Shown piece by piece: positions 310 through 20,152 of a stretch of DNA of 64,000 nt. Under the pieces are notes generated by a model that was not told where the DNA came from, did not search any database, and was given only the letters and a program-made list of their open reading frames with translations. Both the position numbers and the translations under genes were made by a program. Positions within the stretch are counted from its first letter, which is position 1; each line of letters opens with the position of its first letter. Source of the stretch: Dehalococcoidia bacterium (GTDB lineage: Bacteria; Chloroflexota; Dehalococcoidia; Lucifugimonadales; UBA3495); contig JASLXV010000032.1 of the NCBI GenBank assembly GCA_030740155.1, forward strand, positions 1 through 64,000, written 5' to 3'.

Positions 310-2211
310 TCAAGCGCCGGCGCGGCCGACCCTGAGGCCGGCCATGTCCAGGCGTTGCAGGGTTTCCGGGGTGGGCGCACCGGTGTCCTGGTTCCAGTCG
401 AGGCACTCGTAGTACTCGCGGAACCACTGTTCCAGGTGCGGGCCGGCGGGTATCGTCTTATCCTTCGCGGGACCGGCGTCCAGGCCTCCCAGCATACGGG
501 GGCTGGCGTCGTAGTCGTGCTCCCGCTTATAGCCCAGGTGGAGGGCCATCAGGCGTTGCAGGTTGACCAGGCGTTCCCCGGTCTTCAAGGCCTCCTGGCG
601 CGTGTAGCCCTCCCAGCCGACGGCGGCGGAAAGCGCCTGTATGGCGGCGTCCCAGGTGCCCAGGGCACCTCGCAGCGCAAAATAGCAGACGCCGAGGGTA
701 TCGTCCCAGAGCTTCAGGAGCTGGCCCTGGTAGATGGGCTCCACCATCCCGTCGGGGTTCTTGGGGTCCAGGTACTCGTACCCCATGTCGGGGACGCCGT
801 CTTTCCGGGGCGGGTAGACCAGCCCCAACTCCGTCTGCCAAACCGGCCCGGCCCCGGCGATAAGCATCTGGAAGATGAGGCCGGGGTGCATCCGCAGGTC
901 GTGGTCGTTGAATCCGGTGCCCTTCAGGTGGACCGCCAGGTCTTCGATGCCCAGCTCCCGGCCGCACTCCCGGGGCGACTTGGCGAGGGAGGCGCCGATG
1001 CCTTCCCGGCGGACCGTCTTCTCCAACAGCTCGATGACGGCCTCGTAGTTGCCCCAGGTCAGGTCCAGGCCGTCCACCTCATCGCGGTTGAGCCGCTCGG
1101 TGTTGTAGGCCTCCATCACCATGGCGATGTTGCGAGGTACCTCTCCACCATCCAGCCCCATTCCGTCCACCATGCCGGTGATGGCTAGGGCCACGCCGGG
1201 GTCGTCGATGCCCAGGTTGGGCCCCGTTGCCTGGATGATCTCGCCGCCGTAGCCCGACACCGTGGTCCCGGCCAGAGGGCCGGTGGTTACCACCGTCTCG
1301 TGATGGCAGGACATGTCGCAGTTGAAGCCACCCACCGGGCGGACCCGCCACTTGGGGGAATCCTCCACCCAGCGCCGGCTCCAGTGTAGCTGGTACTCCG
1401 GGTCGGTATAGTTCTTTCCCTGTACCCGGCCGTGTTCTTCGAGGTTCGCGTGGGCTCCGGGCACCACCGAGTGGGCCTGCCGGGTCGTCGGCGGGTGGGG
1501 CGACGCAAATAGCGCCCGGTTCCAGGTCTCATAGGCCTCCATCAGGCGCGCGGGATCGGCGATAGGCGCCCGGCCGGTGCCCCGCACGGCGATGGCTTTG
1601 AGCTTTTTCGAGCCCCAGGCAATGCCGGCCTCGCCCCGGGCCGCGGTGTAGACCCCGTCGGACCGTACCGCGGCCCCGGTGATCAGGTTCTCCCCGCCGG
1701 GACCGATGCAGGCGACGCTGATCTGGAGGGGATCGCCCAACTCCAGCTTGATGCGGCGCGGCGTCTCGAAGGTATCCAGGCCCCAGAAGGGGCCGGCGTC
1801 GCGCAACTCGACCTGATTGTTCTCGATCCAGAGATACACCGGCTTGGGTGAAACGCCCCGGAAGACGATGCCGTCCCAGCCGGCATGCTTGAGCCGGGCG
1901 CCAAAATACCCGTGGGCGTGGCTCAAGCCCACGTGGTAGTCGGGGCACTCCCTCAGGTTGACGAGTACCCAGTGGGTGGCGCTGGGCACCATGGTACCCG
2001 TGAGGGGGCCGGTGAACACGTAGAATGGGCAGTCGGGGTCGACCGGGCGCATCGTCGGCGTGATCTCTTGAGACAGCAAATACAGGCCGACGCCGGTGGC
2101 GCCTCCATAGGCCCGCAGTACCTCCTCCGAGGGCAGAGGAACGGACCTGGTTGTCCCGGTGGTCAGGTCTACCTCCAGGACCTTGTTCTGGAAACCGCCT
2201 TTTATTGCCAT
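310..2211 (-). CDS. Aldehyde:ferredoxin oxidoreductase (AOR) family W/Mo enzyme, atypical active site
   Basis: 633 aa; 'VLEVDLTTG', 'GARLKHAGWDGIVFRG', 'VACIGPGGEN', 'GSKKLKAIAVRG', 'GLDLTWGN', 'DDTLGVC', 'TGAPTPETLQRL' are AOR hallmarks; RBS GGAGG upstream. Confidence 0.9.
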   Translation of the reverse strand: MAIKGGFQNKVLEVDLTTGTTRSVPLPSEEVLRAYGGATGVGLYLLSQEITPTMRPVDPDCPFYVFTGPLTGTMVPSATHWVLVNLRECPDYHVGLSHAHGYFGARLKHAGWDGIVFRGVSPKPVYLWIENNQVELRDAGPFWGLDTFETPRRIKLELGDPLQISVACIGPGGENLITGAAVRSDGVYTAARGEAGIAWGSKKLKAIAVRGTGRAPIADPARLMEAYETWNRALFASPHPPTTRQAHSVVPGAHANLEEHGRVQGKNYTDPEYQLHWSRRWVEDSPKWRVRPVGGFNCDMSCHHETVVTTGPLAGTTVSGYGGEIIQATGPNLGIDDPGVALAITGMVDGMGLDGGEVPRNIAMVMEAYNTERLNRDEVDGLDLTWGNYEAVIELLEKTVRREGIGASLAKSPRECGRELGIEDLAVHLKGTGFNDHDLRMHPGLIFQMLIAGAGPVWQTELGLVYPPRKDGVPDMGYEYLDPKNPDGMVEPIYQGQLLKLWDDTLGVCYFALRGALGTWDAAIQALSAAVGWEGYTRQEALKTGERLVNLQRLMALHLGYKREHDYDASPRMLGGLDAGPAKDKTIPAGPHLEQWFREYYECLDWNQDTGAPTPETLQRLDMAGLRVGRAGA

Positions 2212-2567
2212 GATGGACCTCCCGCGATGGGGTTACTGAAGGGGCCGAGGCGCCCGGCCGCCCGGATACACTTCGTACGCGCTATCCGGACTCGCATCCC
2301 GGTACGAAGCGGGGCGCATCTGCCGCTTGCCGGGGCCGATGCGGTAAAGCCAGGGTCTCCGGCCGGAAACCCTGGTCCACCCGGCAGACGCCGGCCCAGA
2401 CGACGCGGCCTGACGAATTGACTGGACGAATTGGAGTGTAAGGACACGCATCGGGGCTGTCAATGCTTCCAATTTTGCCGGAACCGGCGGGCCCATGTTG
2501 ACGCCCGCCGGAGGAGCCGCCATACTCGTGCGAGCGGAAGATGATGTACAGGCTGAGGAGGTGCACG

Positions 2568-3005
2568 ATGACCGCAGCGGAAGAACGGGCCCTGGAACTA
2601 CGGGCTCAGAAGTATAACTGAGCGGAGTCGGTGCTTCTGGCCGTGAGCCAGAGCGCGGGCCTGGAGGCGGGAGACGCGCCTCGAATCGCCACCGGGTTCG
2701 GGGGTGGCGTGGGTGGAGGAGGCGCCATGTGTGGCGCACTGGTGGGAGCCGTCATGGCGGTGGGCCTCAAGCACGGGCGCACCCGCGGCGACGAGGACAA
2801 CCGGGCCGCGTACGGACGCAGCCAGAAGATACTGCGACGCTTCCAGGAGGAGATGGGCAGCTCCATCTGCCTGGAGCTGACGGGAATGGACCTATCGACC
2901 GCCGAGGGGTCCAAGGCCTTTCGCCAGTCGGACGTCCCGGAGCGGGTCTGCCGGAAGTGCATCCTCACGGCGGCCCGTCTGGCGGAGGAGCAACTCGCGG
3001 CTTAG
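2568..3005 (+). CDS. C-GCAxxG-C-C family redox-active protein, selenoprotein (TGA 2619-2621 read as Sec)
   Basis: RBS GAGGAGG then ATG at 2568: MTAAEERALELRAQKYN-U-AESVLLAV...GFGGGVGGGGAMCGALVGA...SSICLELTG...VCRKC. The TGA sits at the family's first conserved Cys (NC(A)ESV motif) and is in frame with ORF 2631..3005. Confidence 0.85.
2631..2656 (+). promoter_or_regulatory. Putative bacterial SECIS hairpin
   Basis: GTGC-T-TCTGGC-CGTGA-GCCAGA-GCGC: 6-bp upper stem, bulged U, 4-bp lower stem, starting about 10 nt after the UGA. Confidence 0.7.
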
Positions 3006-4101: not shown

Positions 4102-5049
4102 TCAGGGCAGGAGCCGCGGCCTCCCCGGAAGGGGAACCAGCCTGCCGACGACCACCAGGGGACCCTTGATCGCCGCGGACATCACCAGGTGGCGCAGCAT
4201 GTACCCGCCCGCTAGGCCCGGAATCAGGCCCAACAGGGCTACACCCATTCGCTCTTCCAGCCCCGCGTCTTCCAGAGACTCGAGCAACGTCAGCTCCATG
4301 CTCAGGGGTATCATCAGTCCCAAGACGATGAAGCCGATCCAGAAGTAAACGGACAGGTCTCCCCGGACCAGCGAGTCTACCGAAGCTTTGGCCGCCAGGT
4401 TGGCTCGCACCAGGTACAGGTAGCTGAACACCACGAATGCCTCTATGACCAGCAGCACGATGTCGGCTCTGAGCAGGTGGCTCTCGGCCGCCACCACCTT
4501 GTCCTCCAACACCATGTAGATCGACAGTATGAGGGTGACGCTCATCATGCCGGCGGAAAGGGCGGAGGTCAGGAACAGCAGGGGCAGTGCCGGCGTGCTC
4601 CAGAATGGGATGGCCCGCGCCGCTCCCAGGAGCAGGCCGGTGTAGACCATGGTCATGACGGCCAGCACGCCACCGGCGATGCCGATGCCCCGCAGTACGT
4701 TCTCAGAGGCCTCCGCCCAGACCAGCGCAAGGTGGATCATGCCGACGACGATGAACGCGGTCAGGATGAACACGCCCCGGGAAATCCAGGAGGTACGGGG
4801 GTGGAACGCCGCCCGGGCGAAGCCGAAGGGCCGGCCCAGGTCCAAGACCAGGAAGATCGTGCTGAAGGCCACCAGAGGAGCCCCGATAGTTACCCCGATC
4901 TTCACGATAGGGTCCCACTCGGTGGTGCGGCTGGCGAACTCGGCGGCCACGCCGGTCACGTAAGCCCCGCACGCCCCCCCGGCCAGAAAGAGGTACAGGG
5001 CGATCTGCCATCCCCAGATGGTCTGGCGTTCGCCTATTGGCTGGTCCAT
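4102..5049 (-). CDS. NrfD/PsrC family membrane anchor subunit
   Basis: 'WGWQIALYLFLAG', 'LDLGRP', 'SWISRG', 'YTGLLLG...IPFW'; multiple TM segments; start ATG 5049 after GGAGG. Confidence 0.9.
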   Translation of the reverse strand: MDQPIGERQTIWGWQIALYLFLAGGACGAYVTGVAAEFASRTTEWDPIVKIGVTIGAPLVAFSTIFLVLDLGRPFGFARAAFHPRTSWISRGVFILTAFIVVGMIHLALVWAEASENVLRGIGIAGGVLAVMTMVYTGLLLGAARAIPFWSTPALPLLFLTSALSAGMMSVTLILSIYMVLEDKVVAAESHLLRADIVLLVIEAFVVFSYLYLVRANLAAKASVDSLVRGDLSVYFWIGFIVLGLMIPLSMELTLLESLEDAGLEERMGVALLGLIPGLAGGYMLRHLVMSAAIKGPLVVVGRLVPLPGRPRLLP

Positions 5050-5110
5050 GGTGCGACCTCCCAAGGGCATTATCAGGAGACCTCTTCAAAACTGGGGCCG
5101 GTCCCCTGGG

Positions 5111-5138
5111 GTAGGGGCGCAATATATTGCGCCCCTAC
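5111..5138. repeat. Perfect 28-bp palindrome, GTAG-type REP-like
   Basis: GTAGGGGCGCAATATATTGCGCCCCTAC in the intergenic gap between the Fe-S and anchor subunit genes. Confidence 0.7.
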
Positions 5139-5188
5139 GGTGACATCATCCAGGCGCGGAATCGCCCGACGCCTCTCGTGAACCTGTC

Positions 5189-5821
5189 CTACGGAGGCAG
5201 ATAGAAAACCGAGGGGTTTGTCCCGGCCTCAGGGTTCAGGGCGGCCGCGCCCTTGTCCCGGATCAAGCCGGAGACGGGGCTCGTGTGATCGTCCAGGTCG
5301 CCGAAGATACGGGCCTTGGAGGGGCAGTTGGCCACGCAGGCGGGCTCTTGCCCCTGGTCAACCCGGGCCGAGCAGAAATCGCACTTCTCCACCGTGCCGA
5401 GGGTGTGCCGGGCATACCCCTGCTCTTCGAATGGCGTCTTGTGGGGGGGCGTCTTGCCATTCCCCGGCATACCGTTGGCGAAGTAAGGGATCTCCCGGTC
5501 GTTGAAATACCGGGCCGCGTAGGGACAGGCCAGCATGCAGTATCGGCAGCCGATGCACAGGTCCTTGTCGATCCACACTATGCCGTCGGGCCGCTGCTTG
5601 GTGGCCCCGGTGGGGCAGACGTCCATGCAGGGCGGGTCCTGGCAGTGCATGCACAGGAGGGGAAGGGCCATCCGCTTCACGGCGGGGTACTTCCCCCACT
5701 CCAGCCGCTGGACCCGGGCGAACGTTATCCCGGTGCCGGTCGCGTTTTCCGCGCGGCAGGCGGCCACGCAAGCGTAACAGCCGATGCACCGCTTTAGGTC
5801 TATGACCATCCCGTAATGCAT
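5189..5821 (-). CDS. 4Fe-4S dicluster electron-transfer subunit (DmsB/PsrB/NrfC type)
   Basis: CIGCYACVAAC, CMHCQDPPCMDVCP, CIGCRYCMLACP, KCDFC...PACVANCP. Confidence 0.95.
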   Translation of the reverse strand: MHYGMVIDLKRCIGCYACVAACRAENATGTGITFARVQRLEWGKYPAVKRMALPLLCMHCQDPPCMDVCPTGATKQRPDGIVWIDKDLCIGCRYCMLACPYAARYFNDREIPYFANGMPGNGKTPPHKTPFEEQGYARHTLGTVEKCDFCSARVDQGQEPACVANCPSKARIFGDLDDHTSPVSGLIRDKGAAALNPEAGTNPSVFYLPP

Positions 5822-5844
5822 TGTGGTTCCCTCCCTGGTTTAGC

Positions 5845-5962
5845 AACTATCCCGAAACCTCGAGTGCCGGCTCCAGCGGTCCTTCGACAGGCTCAGGACG
5901 AACGGATAGGGCGTTCCTGCCCCGTTCGTGGTGAGCTTGTCGAAGGACTTTTTGCGATAGTT
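5845..5962 (+). mobile_element. MITE/REP-like element family A, copy 1
   Basis: Imperfect terminal IRs AACTATCCCGAAA / TTTTGCGATAGTT around an internal inverted pair CCTTCGACAGGCTCAGGACGAACGG ... CCGTTCGTGGTGAGCTTGTCGAAGG; related copies at four other loci. Confidence 0.7.
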
Positions 5963-5979
5963 CCTCGCTGCGTGAGCCC

Positions 5980-6282
5980 TCAACCCCCGGCGATGGCGAA
6001 GACCACCGACAGGGACACCCTGGGCTGGTCGGCCCCCATGTCCTTGAGGGGGGTATCGAGGGCCTCTTCAGCCACTATGTGGTCGTTTACCGCCAGGCAA
6101 ATGGTGTCTCCCAAGTGCCGGCCGTCGGCGGAGAAAAGCTGATGCCGGACCCGCTCTCCGAACCGATCGCCCAGGGTCTCCAGCAGGTTGCGCAACGTGG
6201 CGCCCTCGGGCAGCGACACTTCCACGGAAGGCCGGTCGATCAACTCTCTCCGGATGCCGAATAAGCGGATGGTTACGTCCAT
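5980..6282 (-). CDS. MoaD/ThiS family sulfur-carrier protein
   Basis: 100 aa beta-grasp pattern 'VTIRLFGIRRELI...GATLRNLLETL...LAVND', C-terminal IAGG. Confidence 0.85.
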   Translation of the reverse strand: MDVTIRLFGIRRELIDRPSVEVSLPEGATLRNLLETLGDRFGERVRHQLFSADGRHLGDTICLAVNDHIVAEEALDTPLKDMGADQPRVSLSVVFAIAGG

Positions 6283-6380
6283 GCTGTTCTTAGCTGGTGG
6301 CGGTGCATTTGCCTTCCGATTGCTGTGCCCTCTGGTGTGGTTTTTGGGGGGGCCTTCGTCCGCCCCACCCTGTTGTGGCC

Positions 6381-9044
6381 CTAAATCTTCCTGAACTTTC
6401 CGCCGATACCCGGCAGCCAGCGGGTCGGATGTTTTGCGTCCTCTTTCGGGGCCTTCTCAATCTTCACCGCGGCATCGGCGTCCATGGCGGTGACCACCGG
6501 GTCGGTGTGGGCCCAGTCCATGGGCATCAGCGCCTCGAAGAAGGTGCCTTTGCCCGTGGCCACCGGCGTGTATTTGGACCAGTGGCCGCCGTTGTTGGCC
6601 ACGGCTATCACCTCCGGGTGGATTCCCTCCACCACCTTGGCTTCACCCATGGAAGCTCCGGCTTCTTTGGATTTTATCCAGACCTGGTCCCCGGTTTTTA
6701 TGCCCTTGCGCTTGGCCGTCTCGGAGTTGATGGCGACGTAGTTGGTGTAGGGGTCACCGGCCGAGATCTCGTCCAGCCAGGGGTTCTCGAAGGTGTAGGA
6801 GAACTGGTGGTGGGCCACCCGGTGGTAGACAGCCTGGAGGTCGTACTCCTCGTCTTTGGCCAGCAGCGCGCCGCAGGGCTTCCAGTCGGGCAGGGGATCG
6901 TAGTCGCTGGTGTCGATCTCCGTTACGCCCAGCTCGTCCAGGATGGCCTGGATCCCCTCGCCGGTCTTCTTGAACCACTCAAAGTAGATAGGAGCGCGGA
7001 CGTGGCGGAAGGGCTTCCAGTACACTTCCTCTATCTTCTTCTTCCAGGTGACCACCCCGTTCTCCTTGAACCATTCCAGGCCGCGCTCGGGCCCGAAGTA
7101 GCATTTGTAGAGACGGTCCGCGATCTCCTCACAGGTGTAGCTGACATCTCCTTCCAGAGCGTAGGGGGGATTGAGGCCGTAGAAATGGTTCATGAGGTTG
7201 TTGAAGTCGGCGCGGAACCCCACGCGGTCGGCCAACTCCAGCATGACCTCGGAGAAGTAACGGGCCTGGCCCGGAGGCTTCAGGATGGGCTGGCGGATGG
7301 TGTGGGTGAAGTTGCCCCGGCCCGCCGGATGGTGGTGGGTGATGGTATTGGGAAGCGGGTCCAGGCGCTCCAGGTAGCAGGCATCGGGCAGGACAATATC
7401 GGCGAAGTAGGTGGTCTCGTCCAGCCACAGCTTGGACGCCACCGTGAACATCTTCTTCATGAAGTTCGCCGTCACCTCGGGATTGCCCAAGCTGTAGATG
7501 ATGTTGGGCCCGATGACGAAGAGCATCTCCGGCGTGTAGGGGATCTTGAACCCGTCCAGGTTCTGCATGGCCAGCACTGGAATGTGTCCGGACATCCCGG
7601 TGCTCAGCAGGTCCGACAGCGTGACCCGCTCCGGTGGGACCGGGGTCCGGGGTGGATAGGGCGCGGCGGTTCGGAGGCCCGGCGACGTCTGTCCGTTCCA
7701 GACCCCCGGCGCCAGGAGGCCGTCGGGCCCCGCCCAGGGGGCCCAGTTGGGCATACCCGTGTCCGGGTGGCCTTCACACACCGGGTTGGTGCCCAGTATT
7801 CCGCCGGGAACGTCGCAGGCGCCGACCACCTCGCACAGCATCTCGAACCCCAGGCAGGTGAGCCAGGCGTGGTTGTGGGCATGGGAGCCCTTGAAATAGG
7901 TGACGCAGACCGGCCGGTAGGGAAGCTCCCGACCCTCCAGGACGATGGTGCTTCCGATACTGGCTGCCTGAGAGAACTCGATCGCGATCCGGCGGATAGT
8001 GTCCGCCGGCACGCTGGTAATCTCCGCCGCTTTCTCGACGGTCCAGGCCGCCGCCCGCTGCTTCAGCAGGACGAAAGCCGGGCGGCACTCCTTTCCGTGG
8101 GCGGTATAGACGCCCTCCAGGGCCGGGTCGCCGAGAGATGGATCGTCGTAGTGCTTGGCCGTCTGGTCCGCCGCGTCCCACATCAGGGGCTTGCCGCCGT
8201 CGGGGTCCCTCACGTAGTAGCCATCGGAGCCGATCAGGTAGGGAGCGTTGGTGTGGGCCTTCAGGTACCCGGCATCGAAGTGTCCCGTCTCGTTGAGGAT
8301 GACGTTGAGCATGGCCATGACCATGGCCCCGTCGGTGCCGGGACGGATGGGGACCCATTCGTCGGCCTTCTCGGCCACGCCGTTGAGGACCGGATCAACC
8401 ACCACCAGCTTCATCCCCCGGGCGCGGGCGTCGGCCATCTTCTGGGCGTTACTGGTGAAGGCGTAGTAGGAGTGGCCCCCGATGCCGGCGCCGAATACCA
8501 GGAGGTAGTTGCAAAACTCCAGGTCCGGCATGGAGGTGGTTGCGCCGTGCATCGCACCGACCAGAACGTGCTCGGCGTTGCCGCACTGGTGCCCGTTGGA
8601 GCTGAAAGAGTTGGGGGAGCCGAACCCACTCATGAAGAGGTTGATGAACCAGTAGCCGAAGCTGCTGTTCCCCAGCACGGTGGGGGTGCCCACCAGCTTT
8701 CGCGGGTCATCGTCCTTGATCTTCTTCATCTTATCGACGATGGTATCCAGGGCCTCTTCCCAACTGATCTCCACCCAACCCGGGTCTTCGTTGAAGTCTT
8801 TCTTGGGGTTGGTGCGCTTTACGGGGGCGGTGAGGCGGTTGGGGTCGTAGACCATGGTGATTCCGGACATGCCCTTGGCGCAGAGGCGCCCCATGCCGAT
8901 GGCGCTATCCGGGTTGCCTTCGATCTTCACGATCACGCCGTTCTTGCGGTGCACCTTGATGCTGCACTGGTTGAAGCAAACCGCGCAGGCGCTGGGAATC
9001 CAGGCATCATCCTGAGTCTGTTCATCCTTGACCATTTGGATCAT
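6381..9044 (-). CDS. Molybdopterin oxidoreductase catalytic subunit (DMSO reductase family), PadB-like
   Basis: N-terminal CAVCFNQC...LCAKG Fe-S motif, 'IRPGTDGA', 'ETTYFADIVLPD', candidate Cys Mo ligand in 'HQCGNAEH'; no Tat signal. The PadB similarity is from recollection of that motif. Confidence 0.88.
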   Translation of the reverse strand: MIQMVKDEQTQDDAWIPSACAVCFNQCSIKVHRKNGVIVKIEGNPDSAIGMGRLCAKGMSGITMVYDPNRLTAPVKRTNPKKDFNEDPGWVEISWEEALDTIVDKMKKIKDDDPRKLVGTPTVLGNSSFGYWFINLFMSGFGSPNSFSSNGHQCGNAEHVLVGAMHGATTSMPDLEFCNYLLVFGAGIGGHSYYAFTSNAQKMADARARGMKLVVVDPVLNGVAEKADEWVPIRPGTDGAMVMAMLNVILNETGHFDAGYLKAHTNAPYLIGSDGYYVRDPDGGKPLMWDAADQTAKHYDDPSLGDPALEGVYTAHGKECRPAFVLLKQRAAAWTVEKAAEITSVPADTIRRIAIEFSQAASIGSTIVLEGRELPYRPVCVTYFKGSHAHNHAWLTCLGFEMLCEVVGACDVPGGILGTNPVCEGHPDTGMPNWAPWAGPDGLLAPGVWNGQTSPGLRTAAPYPPRTPVPPERVTLSDLLSTGMSGHIPVLAMQNLDGFKIPYTPEMLFVIGPNIIYSLGNPEVTANFMKKMFTVASKLWLDETTYFADIVLPDACYLERLDPLPNTITHHHPAGRGNFTHTIRQPILKPPGQARYFSEVMLELADRVGFRADFNNLMNHFYGLNPPYALEGDVSYTCEEIADRLYKCYFGPERGLEWFKENGVVTWKKKIEEVYWKPFRHVRAPIYFEWFKKTGEGIQAILDELGVTEIDTSDYDPLPDWKPCGALLAKDEEYDLQAVYHRVAHHQFSYTFENPWLDEISAGDPYTNYVAINSETAKRKGIKTGDQVWIKSKEAGASMGEAKVVEGIHPEVIAVANNGGHWSKYTPVATGKGTFFEALMPMDWAHTDPVVTAMDADAAVKIEKAPKEDAKHPTRWLPGIGGKFRKI

Positions 9045-11955: not shown

Positions 11956-13152
11956 GTGGCAGACCGGCGTGAGATAGAGGGCGAAATCATCATGGGCTGG
12001 GCCGACCGGAAGAGACCCAGCCTCGATGTGAGGAAGGATGCTCAGGGTAGGGTGGTCAGGGTGGCAACGTCGGTCGGAGACCTGCAGGGCCTCATCACGC
12101 CGACCGACCTGCGCTACGTTGTCGTGCAGCTGGACGCCCCCGACCCGGTCCACCCCGACGACTGGTCCCTGTCCATCGGTGGTGAAGTGGAGCGGCCCAT
12201 CGAGTTGAGTCTTGAAGAGCTTCAGAGGTTCCCGGGGGCCACAGTCCGCTGTGTCCATGAATGCTCGGGCAGCGAAGCCGACTTCTTCGACTACCTGAAG
12301 AGCGGCGGAGAGACCTACGGCTGCAACCGGTGCGAGCATGTGGAGGGAAAACCCAACAGGCTGGACCCGGAAGCGCAGCACCAAGGTATCATGAGTGCCG
12401 GCGAGTGGACCGGCGTACCGCTGGCGACGGTGTTGGAGAAGGCGGGGATCAAGCCCGGCGCGGTGAGCGTGCTCGCCCAGGGTTTCGACCGGGGGCTGCC
12501 CGCCGAGTGGGCCATGCACGGGGCCCTGGCGATTCCGGATGAAGAGATCAGCTACGAGAAAAGCCTGCCGTTGAAGAAGGCCCTGGACCGGGACACGATG
12601 CTGGCCTGGGCGCTGAACGGGGAGTACATCAGGCACATCCACGGCGGCCCGGTGCGCCTCGTCACTCCCGGCTGGTCGGGTAACTGGTCGGTCAAGTGGT
12701 TGCAGAAGCTTGAAGTCCTTGACCACCTGCCCAAGTTGTACTATCAGAACCAGTACTTCTACTTGGGCCAAACGCCTGATGACCCCGACAAAAAGATGAT
12801 AACCGCCATGGGGGTGAAGACGTTCATCACCGAGCCCAGGGACGACGACCCGCCGCTCCCTCGCGGCGCCCATGTCATTCGTGGGCTGGCCTGGAGCGGG
12901 GCGGGCCGGATCACCAGGGTGGAGGTGAGCGTGGACGGAGGGGAGACCTGGCAGGACGCCCACCGGGAACTGCCCCACGAGCGGTGGCTATGGCAGCGCT
13001 GGTCCCACCTCTGGCACGCGGAGAGCCCGGGCAAGTATTCCATCATGGCACGGGCCACCGACGAGGCTGGGCGGGTTCAGCCGCAGATAGGGTGGAACGT
13101 GCTGCGCAAGAACTTCGACGGCATAGTGCCGGTGGACGTGGAGATCGAGTAG
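11956..13152 (+). CDS. Sulfite oxidase family molybdoprotein (SoxC/SorA-like)
   Basis: Mo-ligand 'HECSG', 'WTGVPLATVL', 'HGGPVRLVTPGWSGNWSVKWL', C-terminal dimerisation domain 'GLAWSG..RVEVSVDGGETW..ARATD'. Confidence 0.9.
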   Translation: MADRREIEGEIIMGWADRKRPSLDVRKDAQGRVVRVATSVGDLQGLITPTDLRYVVVQLDAPDPVHPDDWSLSIGGEVERPIELSLEELQRFPGATVRCVHECSGSEADFFDYLKSGGETYGCNRCEHVEGKPNRLDPEAQHQGIMSAGEWTGVPLATVLEKAGIKPGAVSVLAQGFDRGLPAEWAMHGALAIPDEEISYEKSLPLKKALDRDTMLAWALNGEYIRHIHGGPVRLVTPGWSGNWSVKWLQKLEVLDHLPKLYYQNQYFYLGQTPDDPDKKMITAMGVKTFITEPRDDDPPLPRGAHVIRGLAWSGAGRITRVEVSVDGGETWQDAHRELPHERWLWQRWSHLWHAESPGKYSIMARATDEAGRVQPQIGWNVLRKNFDGIVPVDVEIE

Positions 13153-15416: not shown

Positions 15417-17327
15417 CTAGCTAACGTCCCCCAGGAACTCTTCCATTCCCAGCCGCTTGAGGGTCTCGGGTGTGGGCAGCCCCGTGTCCACGTTCCAGCC
15501 CAGCAGGCGATAGTACTCGTCGACCATTGCGGGCAGGTAGGGTTCGATGCTCAGCCCCTTGGACGGTCCGGCGGGAGGCGGTTCCAGGTGTTTGGGTGAA
15601 ATGTCGAACTCGTCCGACTTTAGAAATCCCCTCCTGGCATACACCAAGCGCATCAGGTTGGTGATCCGCTCGCCGACGTCGAGGGCCTCTTGCGCGCTGA
15701 AATCCTCCCAGCCGACGGCCTGGGCGAGGCACTTGCTGGTGAGGTTCGTGGACTCTTTGACGCCGCGGACTCCGAACATGCACACGCCCAGGCTGTCGTT
15801 CCACAGCTTGGCGAACTGGGTCTTGCGGACGGGTTCGACCTTGCCCAGCGCCTCCTCGGTGTCGTGGGCCACCCCCGGGGTCTTCTCAGGGTACCCCACT
15901 TCGGGGCGGGGGTTGGCGTCGGCGCCGGTCCCCTGGATAGACGGCCCGGTGCCGGCCACTATCTCGCCGAAGAAGACGCTCCAGAACTGCCGGTGGTCGT
16001 GCATCACCACCCCTTCGCCCTTTATGTCCAGCACCTTGGCGCGCATCTCCTCCTCCAGCCCCTTCTCGCCGCCCAGGGCATCGGGCATGGCCTTCGTGCC
16101 GCCGGCGAGCTTGGCCCCGATGCCCTCCCTCCGGATGGTCCGGTCGATCAGTTCCATGGCCGATTCCCAGTTGCCCCAGGTCAAATCCAGGCCGTCGGTG
16201 TCTTCCAGGGTGAGGATGCCTTCATTGTATGCTTCGTATACCGCGCCCAGGATGGTGCCGAACTGGCCCGACTCCAGCCCCATGGCATCGTAATAGTCGG
16301 TCATGATCACGATGCCGTTGGGGTCGTCGACACCGATGATGGCGGCGGCCCCCTCCATGTTCTCGGCGCCTCCGCAGGGGCTCCCCACGAATCCGGTGTA
16401 GGGCCCGTCGGTTATCTCCACGTCGTAGGCGCAGGAAATCTTGCAGTTGTAGGATGGCTGTGGGGTGATCTTCCAGCGAGCACAGGCGTCGACATACTTT
16501 TGGGCGAACTCCGAGCCCCATTCGGGGTCGGTCATGTTCTTGGCCGCGACCCTCAGGGCCTTGCCCCATGGGTCGCCATAGCTGCGGGTCATGCCCCCGT
16601 CCTGAAGCCAGGGCGCCGAGAGGGCGAGGTTCTCCTCCCATTTGGCCGAGGTTTCCACCAAACCGGCCGGGTCGAACAGGGGTACGGCGCCGGTACCCCG
16701 CACGGCGATGGCCTTGAGGTTCTTGCTCCCCATCACCGCCCCCGGACTCCCCTTCCCGGAGCCGTGGTTCCGGTCCGCCTTTACCATGGCCCCGGGGAGC
16801 TGGGCCTCTCCGGCAGGGCCGATGCAAGCGACGCTGATGTTCTCCTCGTCCCCCAGCTCTAGTTTGAGGCGGCGCTCGGTCTCCCTGGTGCTCAGGCCCC
16901 ACAGGTGGGTGGCGTCCCTGATCTCCACCCGGTCATCGTCGATCCAGAGGTAGGAGGGTTTCTCGGCCCGGCCGGTGAGGATGATGCCTTCATGCCCGGC
17001 GTGCTTTAGGAATGCCCCCCAGAAGCCGTGGCCGTGGCCTACGCCGGCGGAGTAGGGGATAGACAGGTTGAAACAGATGGTGGTCCAATCCGATGAGTTG
17101 ACGGCGGGGGTCCCCGTCAACGGCCCCAGCATGATGATGAGGGGAGCATCCGGGTCGGTGGCCTCGGCCTGCTGGGGAGCGTCGCGCAGCAGATAGTACA
17201 GACCCAGTCCGGTGCCGCCCACATACTTACGGAGGACCTCCTCGCTGGGGAGGGGTTCCTTGACGACGGTCTCCTCCCGGAGATCGATGCGCAGGATGTG
17301 AGGCCGGTACCCTCCACGAATGGGCAT
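15417..17327 (-). CDS. Aldehyde:ferredoxin oxidoreductase (AOR) family W/Mo enzyme, paralog 2
   Basis: 636 aa; 'ILRIDL', 'GAFLKHAG', 'VACIGPAGE', 'GAVMGSKNLKAIAVRG', 'NDSLGVC', 'TGLPTPETLKRLG'; colinear with 310..2211. Confidence 0.9.
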   Translation of the reverse strand: MPIRGGYRPHILRIDLREETVVKEPLPSEEVLRKYVGGTGLGLYYLLRDAPQQAEATDPDAPLIIMLGPLTGTPAVNSSDWTTICFNLSIPYSAGVGHGHGFWGAFLKHAGHEGIILTGRAEKPSYLWIDDDRVEIRDATHLWGLSTRETERRLKLELGDEENISVACIGPAGEAQLPGAMVKADRNHGSGKGSPGAVMGSKNLKAIAVRGTGAVPLFDPAGLVETSAKWEENLALSAPWLQDGGMTRSYGDPWGKALRVAAKNMTDPEWGSEFAQKYVDACARWKITPQPSYNCKISCAYDVEITDGPYTGFVGSPCGGAENMEGAAAIIGVDDPNGIVIMTDYYDAMGLESGQFGTILGAVYEAYNEGILTLEDTDGLDLTWGNWESAMELIDRTIRREGIGAKLAGGTKAMPDALGGEKGLEEEMRAKVLDIKGEGVVMHDHRQFWSVFFGEIVAGTGPSIQGTGADANPRPEVGYPEKTPGVAHDTEEALGKVEPVRKTQFAKLWNDSLGVCMFGVRGVKESTNLTSKCLAQAVGWEDFSAQEALDVGERITNLMRLVYARRGFLKSDEFDISPKHLEPPPAGPSKGLSIEPYLPAMVDEYYRLLGWNVDTGLPTPETLKRLGMEEFLGDVS

Positions 17328-19105: not shown

Positions 19106-20152
19106 ATGGTAGCGGAGCCGATCCGGCTGACCAGCTTGGCCCATTGCGCCGGTTGAGCGGCCAAGTTCAGCCACGAGGACCTCGTCGAGGTCCTGAAGCA
19201 TATACCGGTGGTAACCCACCCCGATCTCCTGGTGGGTACCGGGACGGTGGACGACGCAGGAGTCTACCGCCTTGGCGATGACACCGCGTTGGTCCTGACG
19301 GTGGACTTCTTCCCTCCCGTCATCGATGACCCGTACAACTACGGTGCCATCGCCGTCGCCAACTCCCTCAGCGACATATACGCCATGGGAGGCAGGCCTC
19401 TATTGGGCTTGAACATCGTGGGCTTCCCGGTGGAACTCCCCAAGAATATTCTCGGGGAGATACTGAGGGGTGGCTCCGACAAGGCCCAAGAGGCGGGGTG
19501 CCTCATCATCGGCGGCCACACGGTGGACGACCGGGAACCCAAGTACGGTCTGGCCGCCGTGGGGCTGGTTGAGCCCGGGAAAGAGGTCACCGTCGCCGGC
19601 GCCAAGCCCGGGGACCGGCTGGTCCTGACCAAGCCACTGGGCACCGGGATCATCACCACGGCGGGCAAGCAGGAACGGGTGTCGCCGGAGGTGATGGAGC
19701 GGGCGGTGGCCGTGATGAGCAAGTTGAACCGGGCGGCTTCGGAAGCCATGCTCAAGGTGGGGGTGAACGCCTGCACCGACGTCACCGGCTTCGGCCTCAT
19801 CGGCCACCTCAACAACATTATGGAGGCCAGCGGCGCCGGGGCCGAACTCCGGCTGTCGGACATACCGGTGATACCGGGAGCGTGGGAGCTGCTCGAGCAG
19901 GGAATCGTTCCCGGAGGCACCCACCGTAATTTCGAAGGCGCCGGACAACGAGTGCGCTGGCACCAGGACGTGTCCGAGAACACCAGGCTGCTCCTATGTG
20001 ACGCCCAGACCTCCGGTGGCCTTCTCATATCAGTGCCGGAGGACCGGACCGATGCGTTGCTGAAGGAGCTGGAAGCCGCCGGCATCGAAGGCGCACGGGT
20101 CATCGGCGAGCTTCTGCTCGACGGTAAAAAGGGGATTCAGGTGGTGCCCTAA
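19106..20152 (+). CDS. selD: Selenide, water dikinase (selenophosphate synthetase), selenoprotein form (TGA 19154-19156 = Sec)
   Basis: MVAEPIRLTSLAHCAG-U-AAKFS continues in frame into 'DDAGVY', 'TVDFFPP', 'ANSLSDIYAMGG', 'GGHT', 'TDVTGFGL', 'DAQTSGGLL'. Confidence 0.96.
19176..19194 (+). promoter_or_regulatory. Putative SECIS hairpin of selD
   Basis: AGGACCTC-GTC-GAGGTCCT perfect 8-bp stem about 20 nt after the UGA, with possible lower pairing TTC/GAA. Confidence 0.6.

Follow-up and report, generated by a model that had tools for sequence, protein, structure and literature searches.

An in-frame UGA lies at codon 18 of an intact 145-codon gene of the C-GCAxxG-C-C family in a marine Dehalococcoidia genome, and comparison of the gene with its homologues makes it very likely that this codon is read as selenocysteine. 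We are confident, if short of certain, of the reading as a whole. It holds that the selenocysteine (Sec) gene is intact and that its all-helical product likely carries a metal or Fe-S centre through Sec18, Cys55, Cys101 and Cys128. Coordinates refer to the window, that is, the whole 64,000-nucleotide stretch of DNA that was analysed. Its features are collected in Table 1.

Table 1 Features of the window around the Sec gene and of the selD match
Feature	Position	Strand	Remarks
C-GCAxxG-C-C family gene	2568..3005	+	145 aa with Sec18, Cys55, Cys101, Cys128; scored with the TIGR01909 and PF09719 profiles
In-frame TGA, putative Sec codon	2619..2621	+	First conserved Cys column of the family
Shine-Dalgarno AGGAGG	2556..2561	+	6 nt before ATG 2568; common to same-genus genome G001
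SECIS-like hairpin	2631..2656	+	Bulged U2636; stem 2637-2641/2647-2651; loop CGUGA 2642-2646
Sigma-70-like promoter match facing the Sec gene	2498..2526	+	Consensus match only; -35 and -10 words kept in G001
Sigma-70-like promoter match facing the AOR gene	2435..2463	-	Consensus match only
Aldehyde:ferredoxin oxidoreductase (AOR)-family gene	310..2211	-	633 aa; divergent; AFOR_N and AFOR_C found on the G001 orthologue
selD match	19124..20044	+	Same window; C-A-G-U motif; in-frame TGA at 19154; hairpin

The frame runs from its ATG through 17 codons to the TGA, in the context Y-N-(TGA)-A-E-S-V. It then stays open through CGALVG (Cys55), Cys101, Cys128 and Cys131 to the TAG at 3003-3005. The strong ribosome binding site and start, the TGA at the family motif and the open frame beyond it are all as described in the first-pass annotation, a short note made from the DNA alone. 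Aligned across the TGA, the protein covers nearly the whole of both family models and passes both curated cut-offs, with 89.9 bits for TIGR01909 (cut-off 47.4; model positions 1-118 of 120) and 100.4 bits for PF09719 (cut-off 27; positions 1-117 of 118, spanning the TGA). All four Cys columns of the family are present as U18, C55 in CGALVG, C101 and C128, and they are invariant in 38 aligned sequences in which Sec was entered as Cys. Cys131, found in 5 of 81 TGA genes, is not a family residue, and no CxxC or UxxC motif is conserved in the family. Gene calling with table 11 starts at GTG 2631 and returns 2631-3005, a protein of 124 aa, which is the shortening that had been foreseen for standard callers.

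Homologues were compared in a pool of loci (L025-L157) giving 136 matches and, without duplicates, 118 distinct genes. The codon at the first Cys column is TGA in 81 of these genes, TGC or TGT in 33, TCA in three and TAT in one; because loci were chosen by likeness or for a TGA flag, the pool is biased toward TGA genes and 81 of 118 is not a frequency. TAA and TAG do not occur at this column in any of the 118. The alternation of TGA and TGC that was to be looked for in the orthologues is found at one and the same column. All 81 TGA genes retain Cys55 and Cys101, which shows selection on the reading frame beyond the TGA. Cys128 is kept in 75 of the 81, the remaining six rows ending before it. 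The same-column TGA is seen in three public contigs (99% identical) and in the orthologue of G001, a genome of the same genus (88% identical). This genome keeps both family genes of the genome studied here, and comparison with it shows that the codons upstream of the TGA and the ribosome binding site are conserved.

A survey of the class found a family match in 105 of 401 genomes. Among the survey matches listed, outside which there are 33 more, at least 14 carry one TGA, in at least 12 genomes including this one. tRNA-Sec was found in 13 of 13 other TGA-carrying genomes tested and selA in 12 of them, the exception being only 71% complete. For 29 genomes picked for their Cys copies the figures are 18 for tRNA-Sec and 17 for selA. 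Among the genomes tested, which are kin and not independent, every TGA copy occurs alongside tRNA-Sec. The genome under study (completeness 93.7%, contamination 7.65%) contains selA, selB and selD, each scoring above its curated cut-off, and a tRNA-Sec whose anticodon is TCA. selD lies in the window itself, where an 8-bp hairpin with a GUC loop accompanies its in-frame TGA. The first-pass annotation had made its reading depend on three points, and all of them turned out in its favour: selA, selB and tRNA-Sec are in the genome, together with selD; the TGA is not specific to one assembly; and homologues have Cys at this column.

The hairpin behind the TGA was compared between genes. Its conserved part is the 5-bp stem with its loop, located 16 nt downstream of the TGA and having G as the second nucleotide of the loop. 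Neither the lower stem nor the bulged U2636 is conserved in the consensus fold; both are particular to this gene. As a single sequence, the hairpin folds no better than shuffles (z -1.29), and by our own hairpin criterion a similar hairpin follows 317 of the 1595 TGA triplets of the window. Support for the hairpin as a SECIS element is thus comparative, drawn from many genes and not from a single fold. The stem keeps all five of its pairs in 74 of 75 Sec-clade genes versus 2 of 33 Cys genes, a contrast inflated by the kinship among the former and by the greater divergence of the Cys controls. The same holds for our scripted criterion, which is distinct from bSECISearch and takes its distance and loop limits from the bSECIS model: it was passed by 71 of the 75 main Sec-clade genes, by five of six genes of the type found on contig C62 and by 7 of 33 Cys genes. 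At this distance from the TGA, the six C62-type genes carry a hairpin unrelated to that of the main clade. The third positions of three codons inside the hairpin are 100, 97 and 97% fixed, compared with 38-95% at 33 other such sites, and the Cys/Ser variation in LAV(C/S)Q maps to the hairpin loop. Two compensatory changes occur in one Sec-clade gene; five genes show one-sided G-U wobble changes and one further gene has U-G at the stem base. Of the SECIS-like geometry first described, the upper stem and loop therefore hold across genes, and the bulged U and lower stem belong to this gene only. SelB would, almost certainly, bind the hairpin and bring Sec-tRNA to the UGA.

Other members of the family show how the first Cys column varies. 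The second family gene of this genome, on contig C62 (13117-12623, minus strand; L026/L157), has its TGA at 13057, in the same column. It is about 38% identical over the matched stretch, has a different hairpin and counts a DUF362 gene and an AOR-family gene among its neighbours. Two loci, L068 (2450-3940) and L073 (2989-4472), contain tandem triplets in which copy 1 has TGA and copies 2 and 3 have TCA (Ser). The Ser copies retain the core of the hairpin and all three remaining Cys. Since such Ser-bearing tandem paralogues persist in two loci, loss of the first ligand appears to be tolerated in some copies. Another locus, L055 (G280:C14:31920-32285), is a Cys copy among the closest relatives in a quick tree, and its hairpin sequence is kept. 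Its genome has selA, and the copy is possibly a Sec-to-Cys reversion.

An AlphaFold model, computed with Cys for Sec from a 95-row alignment, is all helical (pLDDT 96.9) and has Sec18 opening helix 18-29. Among PDB structures it matches split-Soret cytochrome c (1h21) best, with a probability of 0.98 and a TMq of 0.58 but a weak E of 0.16, 12% identity and an rmsd of 7.2. A profile search also found 1h21, the match covering the CGAxxG motif with E 0.003; with a second profile the entry reached only E 0.54. The labile centre of split-Soret cytochrome c was reportedly described by Abreu et al. 2003 as possibly a [2Fe-2S] centre on cysteines. The title of the 1h21 entry names a novel iron centre. 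By inspection, the 145-aa protein lacks a CxxCH haem-binding motif (it has C-R-K-C-I instead) and a signal-like N-terminus; as there is no signal peptide, it is predicted to be cytoplasmic. A cytoplasmic Fe-S or metal-binding protein is the most likely product, because of the four invariant Cys, the missing CxxCH and the missing export signal.

We give about even chances to a labile Fe-S or metal centre bound by Sec18, Cys55, Cys101 and Cys128. As part of the same reading, at the same odds, the protein would act as a small electron carrier or a cluster-handling helper for the oxidoreductases of a lineage. Such a helper would serve whichever oxidoreductases the lineage has and not specifically the divergent AOR. 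A bolder version, which we put forward only tentatively, has Sec18 as a direct ligand of a labile Fe-S centre in a haem-free fold resembling split-Soret cytochrome. The family would consist of Sec-ligated Fe-S carriers, serving many AOR-family enzymes in this genus. Both family copies of this genome adjoin AOR-family enzymes.

The main rival to a metal-centre mechanism accepts Sec insertion and makes the protein a metal-free thiol/selenol oxidoreductase, in which the nucleophile Sec18 and one of the Cys would pair as a selenenyl-sulfide. A passage of PMC9312934 assigns a presumed redox role to the majority of catalogued prokaryotic selenoproteins, and the Pfam label of the family is 'putative redox-active'. 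The position of Sec at the start of a helix in the model would also suit a nucleophile. However, the family has neither a conserved CxxC/UxxC, Cys131 being so rarely present, nor a thioredoxin fold. Four invariant Cys at wide spacing are more in keeping with a metal site, and the closest fold is one linked to an iron centre. We therefore regard a metal-free enzyme as possible but on balance unlikely.

The first-pass annotation also had the Sec protein working with the divergently transcribed AOR-family enzyme, and this proposal finds no support beyond the genus. A gap of 356 bp separates the two genes. The promoter-like sites in it stand back to back, an arrangement for which 0.1 is expected and which is largely kept in G001, and these matches suggest that each gene has its own promoter. 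A short direct repeat (2410-2434), partly kept in G001, is found just downstream of the AOR-facing site and is possibly a regulator site. Among TGA loci of at least 4 kb (n=38), an AOR gene is nearby in all four of this genus and in none of the 34 elsewhere. Neighbours outside the genus include gatCA, an aminotransferase, OYE-type flavoenzymes with ETF, and assorted others. A dedicated partner of the divergent enzyme, either an electron acceptor or a maturation factor, would account for the divergent arrangement being common to G001. It would also fit the position of the C62 paralogue, 3.3 kb from an AOR-family gene in a genome of which just 2.5% lies no more than 3.5 kb from such a gene. In a passage of PMC5640608, a family member of Clostridium ljungdahlii shares a set of four genes with a molybdopterin aldehyde oxidoreductase. 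Against such a partnership, in addition to the 34 loci devoid of AOR, the closest paralogue of the enzyme (83% identical, contig C60) has no family gene on its contig, and the 3.6-Mb genome has 12 AOR-family ORFs. Moreover, the AOR and Sec genes face apart, with separate promoter-like sites. We consider a dedicated partnership improbable, and prefer the general helper role described above.

Two AOR-family ORFs are present in the window (310-2211 and 15417-17327), and a related pair is found on contig C60. One run on the minus strand (4102-9044) encodes a molybdopterin oxidoreductase, a MoaD-like protein, a 4Fe-4S protein and an NrfD-type membrane subunit. The molybdopterin oxidoreductase run is below all NCBIfam cut-offs, the nearest being thiosulfate reductase PhsA.

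The family and its Sec position are known already, and the gene is a well-supported added member of a catalogued family. In NCBIfam, TIGR01909 bears the name 'C-GCAxxG-C-C family (seleno)protein'. Passages of two reviews (PMC13188914, PMC9312934) list the family among selenoproteins, the former (2026) dividing it into form 1 and form 2. A 'putative redox protein' was reported as a new selenoprotein family in 2007, as stated in an excerpt of PMC1976440. The supposition that Sec members might already be annotated was borne out, Sec at the same Cys column being catalogued in the portion of PMC12013277 consulted. Two Dehalococcoidia genomes rank in the top ten of BSepDB for selenoprotein gene richness, according to a passage of PMC13326102. 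The family is not named for Dehalococcoidia in the literature passages searched. It was absent from the main text of PMC2398784 and PMC5029168 in a term search, and a full-text literature search by family name returned no biochemical study of it in the passages retrieved.

In databases, a cluster of near-identical proteins has 35 members, of which the 15 listed are all 50-124 aa long; one is named Dehalococcoidia bacterium. The closest database homologues likewise lack the N-terminal part including Sec. Fourteen DNA runs contain at least 96% of the sampled words. All are marine or seawater metagenomes, and one is possibly the window's own source. These short entries are what would be expected if the TGA were a true stop (by pseudogene formation or sequencing error) or if translation really started at GTG 2631, but shortening at UGA is usual gene-caller behaviour, and such a reading is very improbable given a TGA kept across a wide clade and never replaced by TAA or TAG, conserved upstream codons and ribosome binding site, a conserved hairpin behind it, and TGA copies solely in tRNA-Sec genomes among those tested. 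With UGA read as selenocysteine, the result is mainly an annotation fix, since the public records consulted for the gene lack at least its first 21 residues, Sec among them. It also adds a clean and strongly conserved set of SECIS elements from Dehalococcoidia-like genes. The question of Fe-S binding is family-wide and not particular to this locus; for it, a single-domain protein of 145 residues that has natural Cys forms among its near relatives would be handy.

The nearest structural relative, split-Soret cytochrome c of Desulfovibrio desulfuricans (1h21; NF047622), shares GG...CGAxxG and, weakly, the last Cys. It is a dimeric, di-haem protein of 247 aa, whereas the protein described here has 145 aa and no CxxCH. 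Its NF047622 score is 14.5 bits against a cut-off of 400, and it has neither the c-type haem motif nor the export signal of that group. A homologous domain is found in the HUGP/GUXX-star fusion selenoprotein (NF045501; E 3e-17, 62.7 bits against a cut-off of 325) and in the DVU_1555 family (NF045669; E 2.5e-11, 43.5 bits against 103). NF045501 is a fusion of 236 positions with two Sec; in contrast, the present gene encodes a single domain with one TGA and no fused second domain. Within the C-GCAxxG-C-C family itself, whose two curated cut-offs the gene passes, two representatives catalogued in PMC12013277 (part of supplementary file 3) carry U in place of the first of the four Cys when compared by eye. 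Their motifs there are Y-T-U-A-E-A and G-G-U-G-A-G, the former matching Y-N-U-A-E-S of the present protein. The representative WP_012158890.1 is longer and has an N-terminal extension that is missing here. The short cytoplasmic form resembles the 'putative redox protein', and it comes from a marine Dehalococcoidia lineage for which the NCBI records consulted are shortened to 124 aa.
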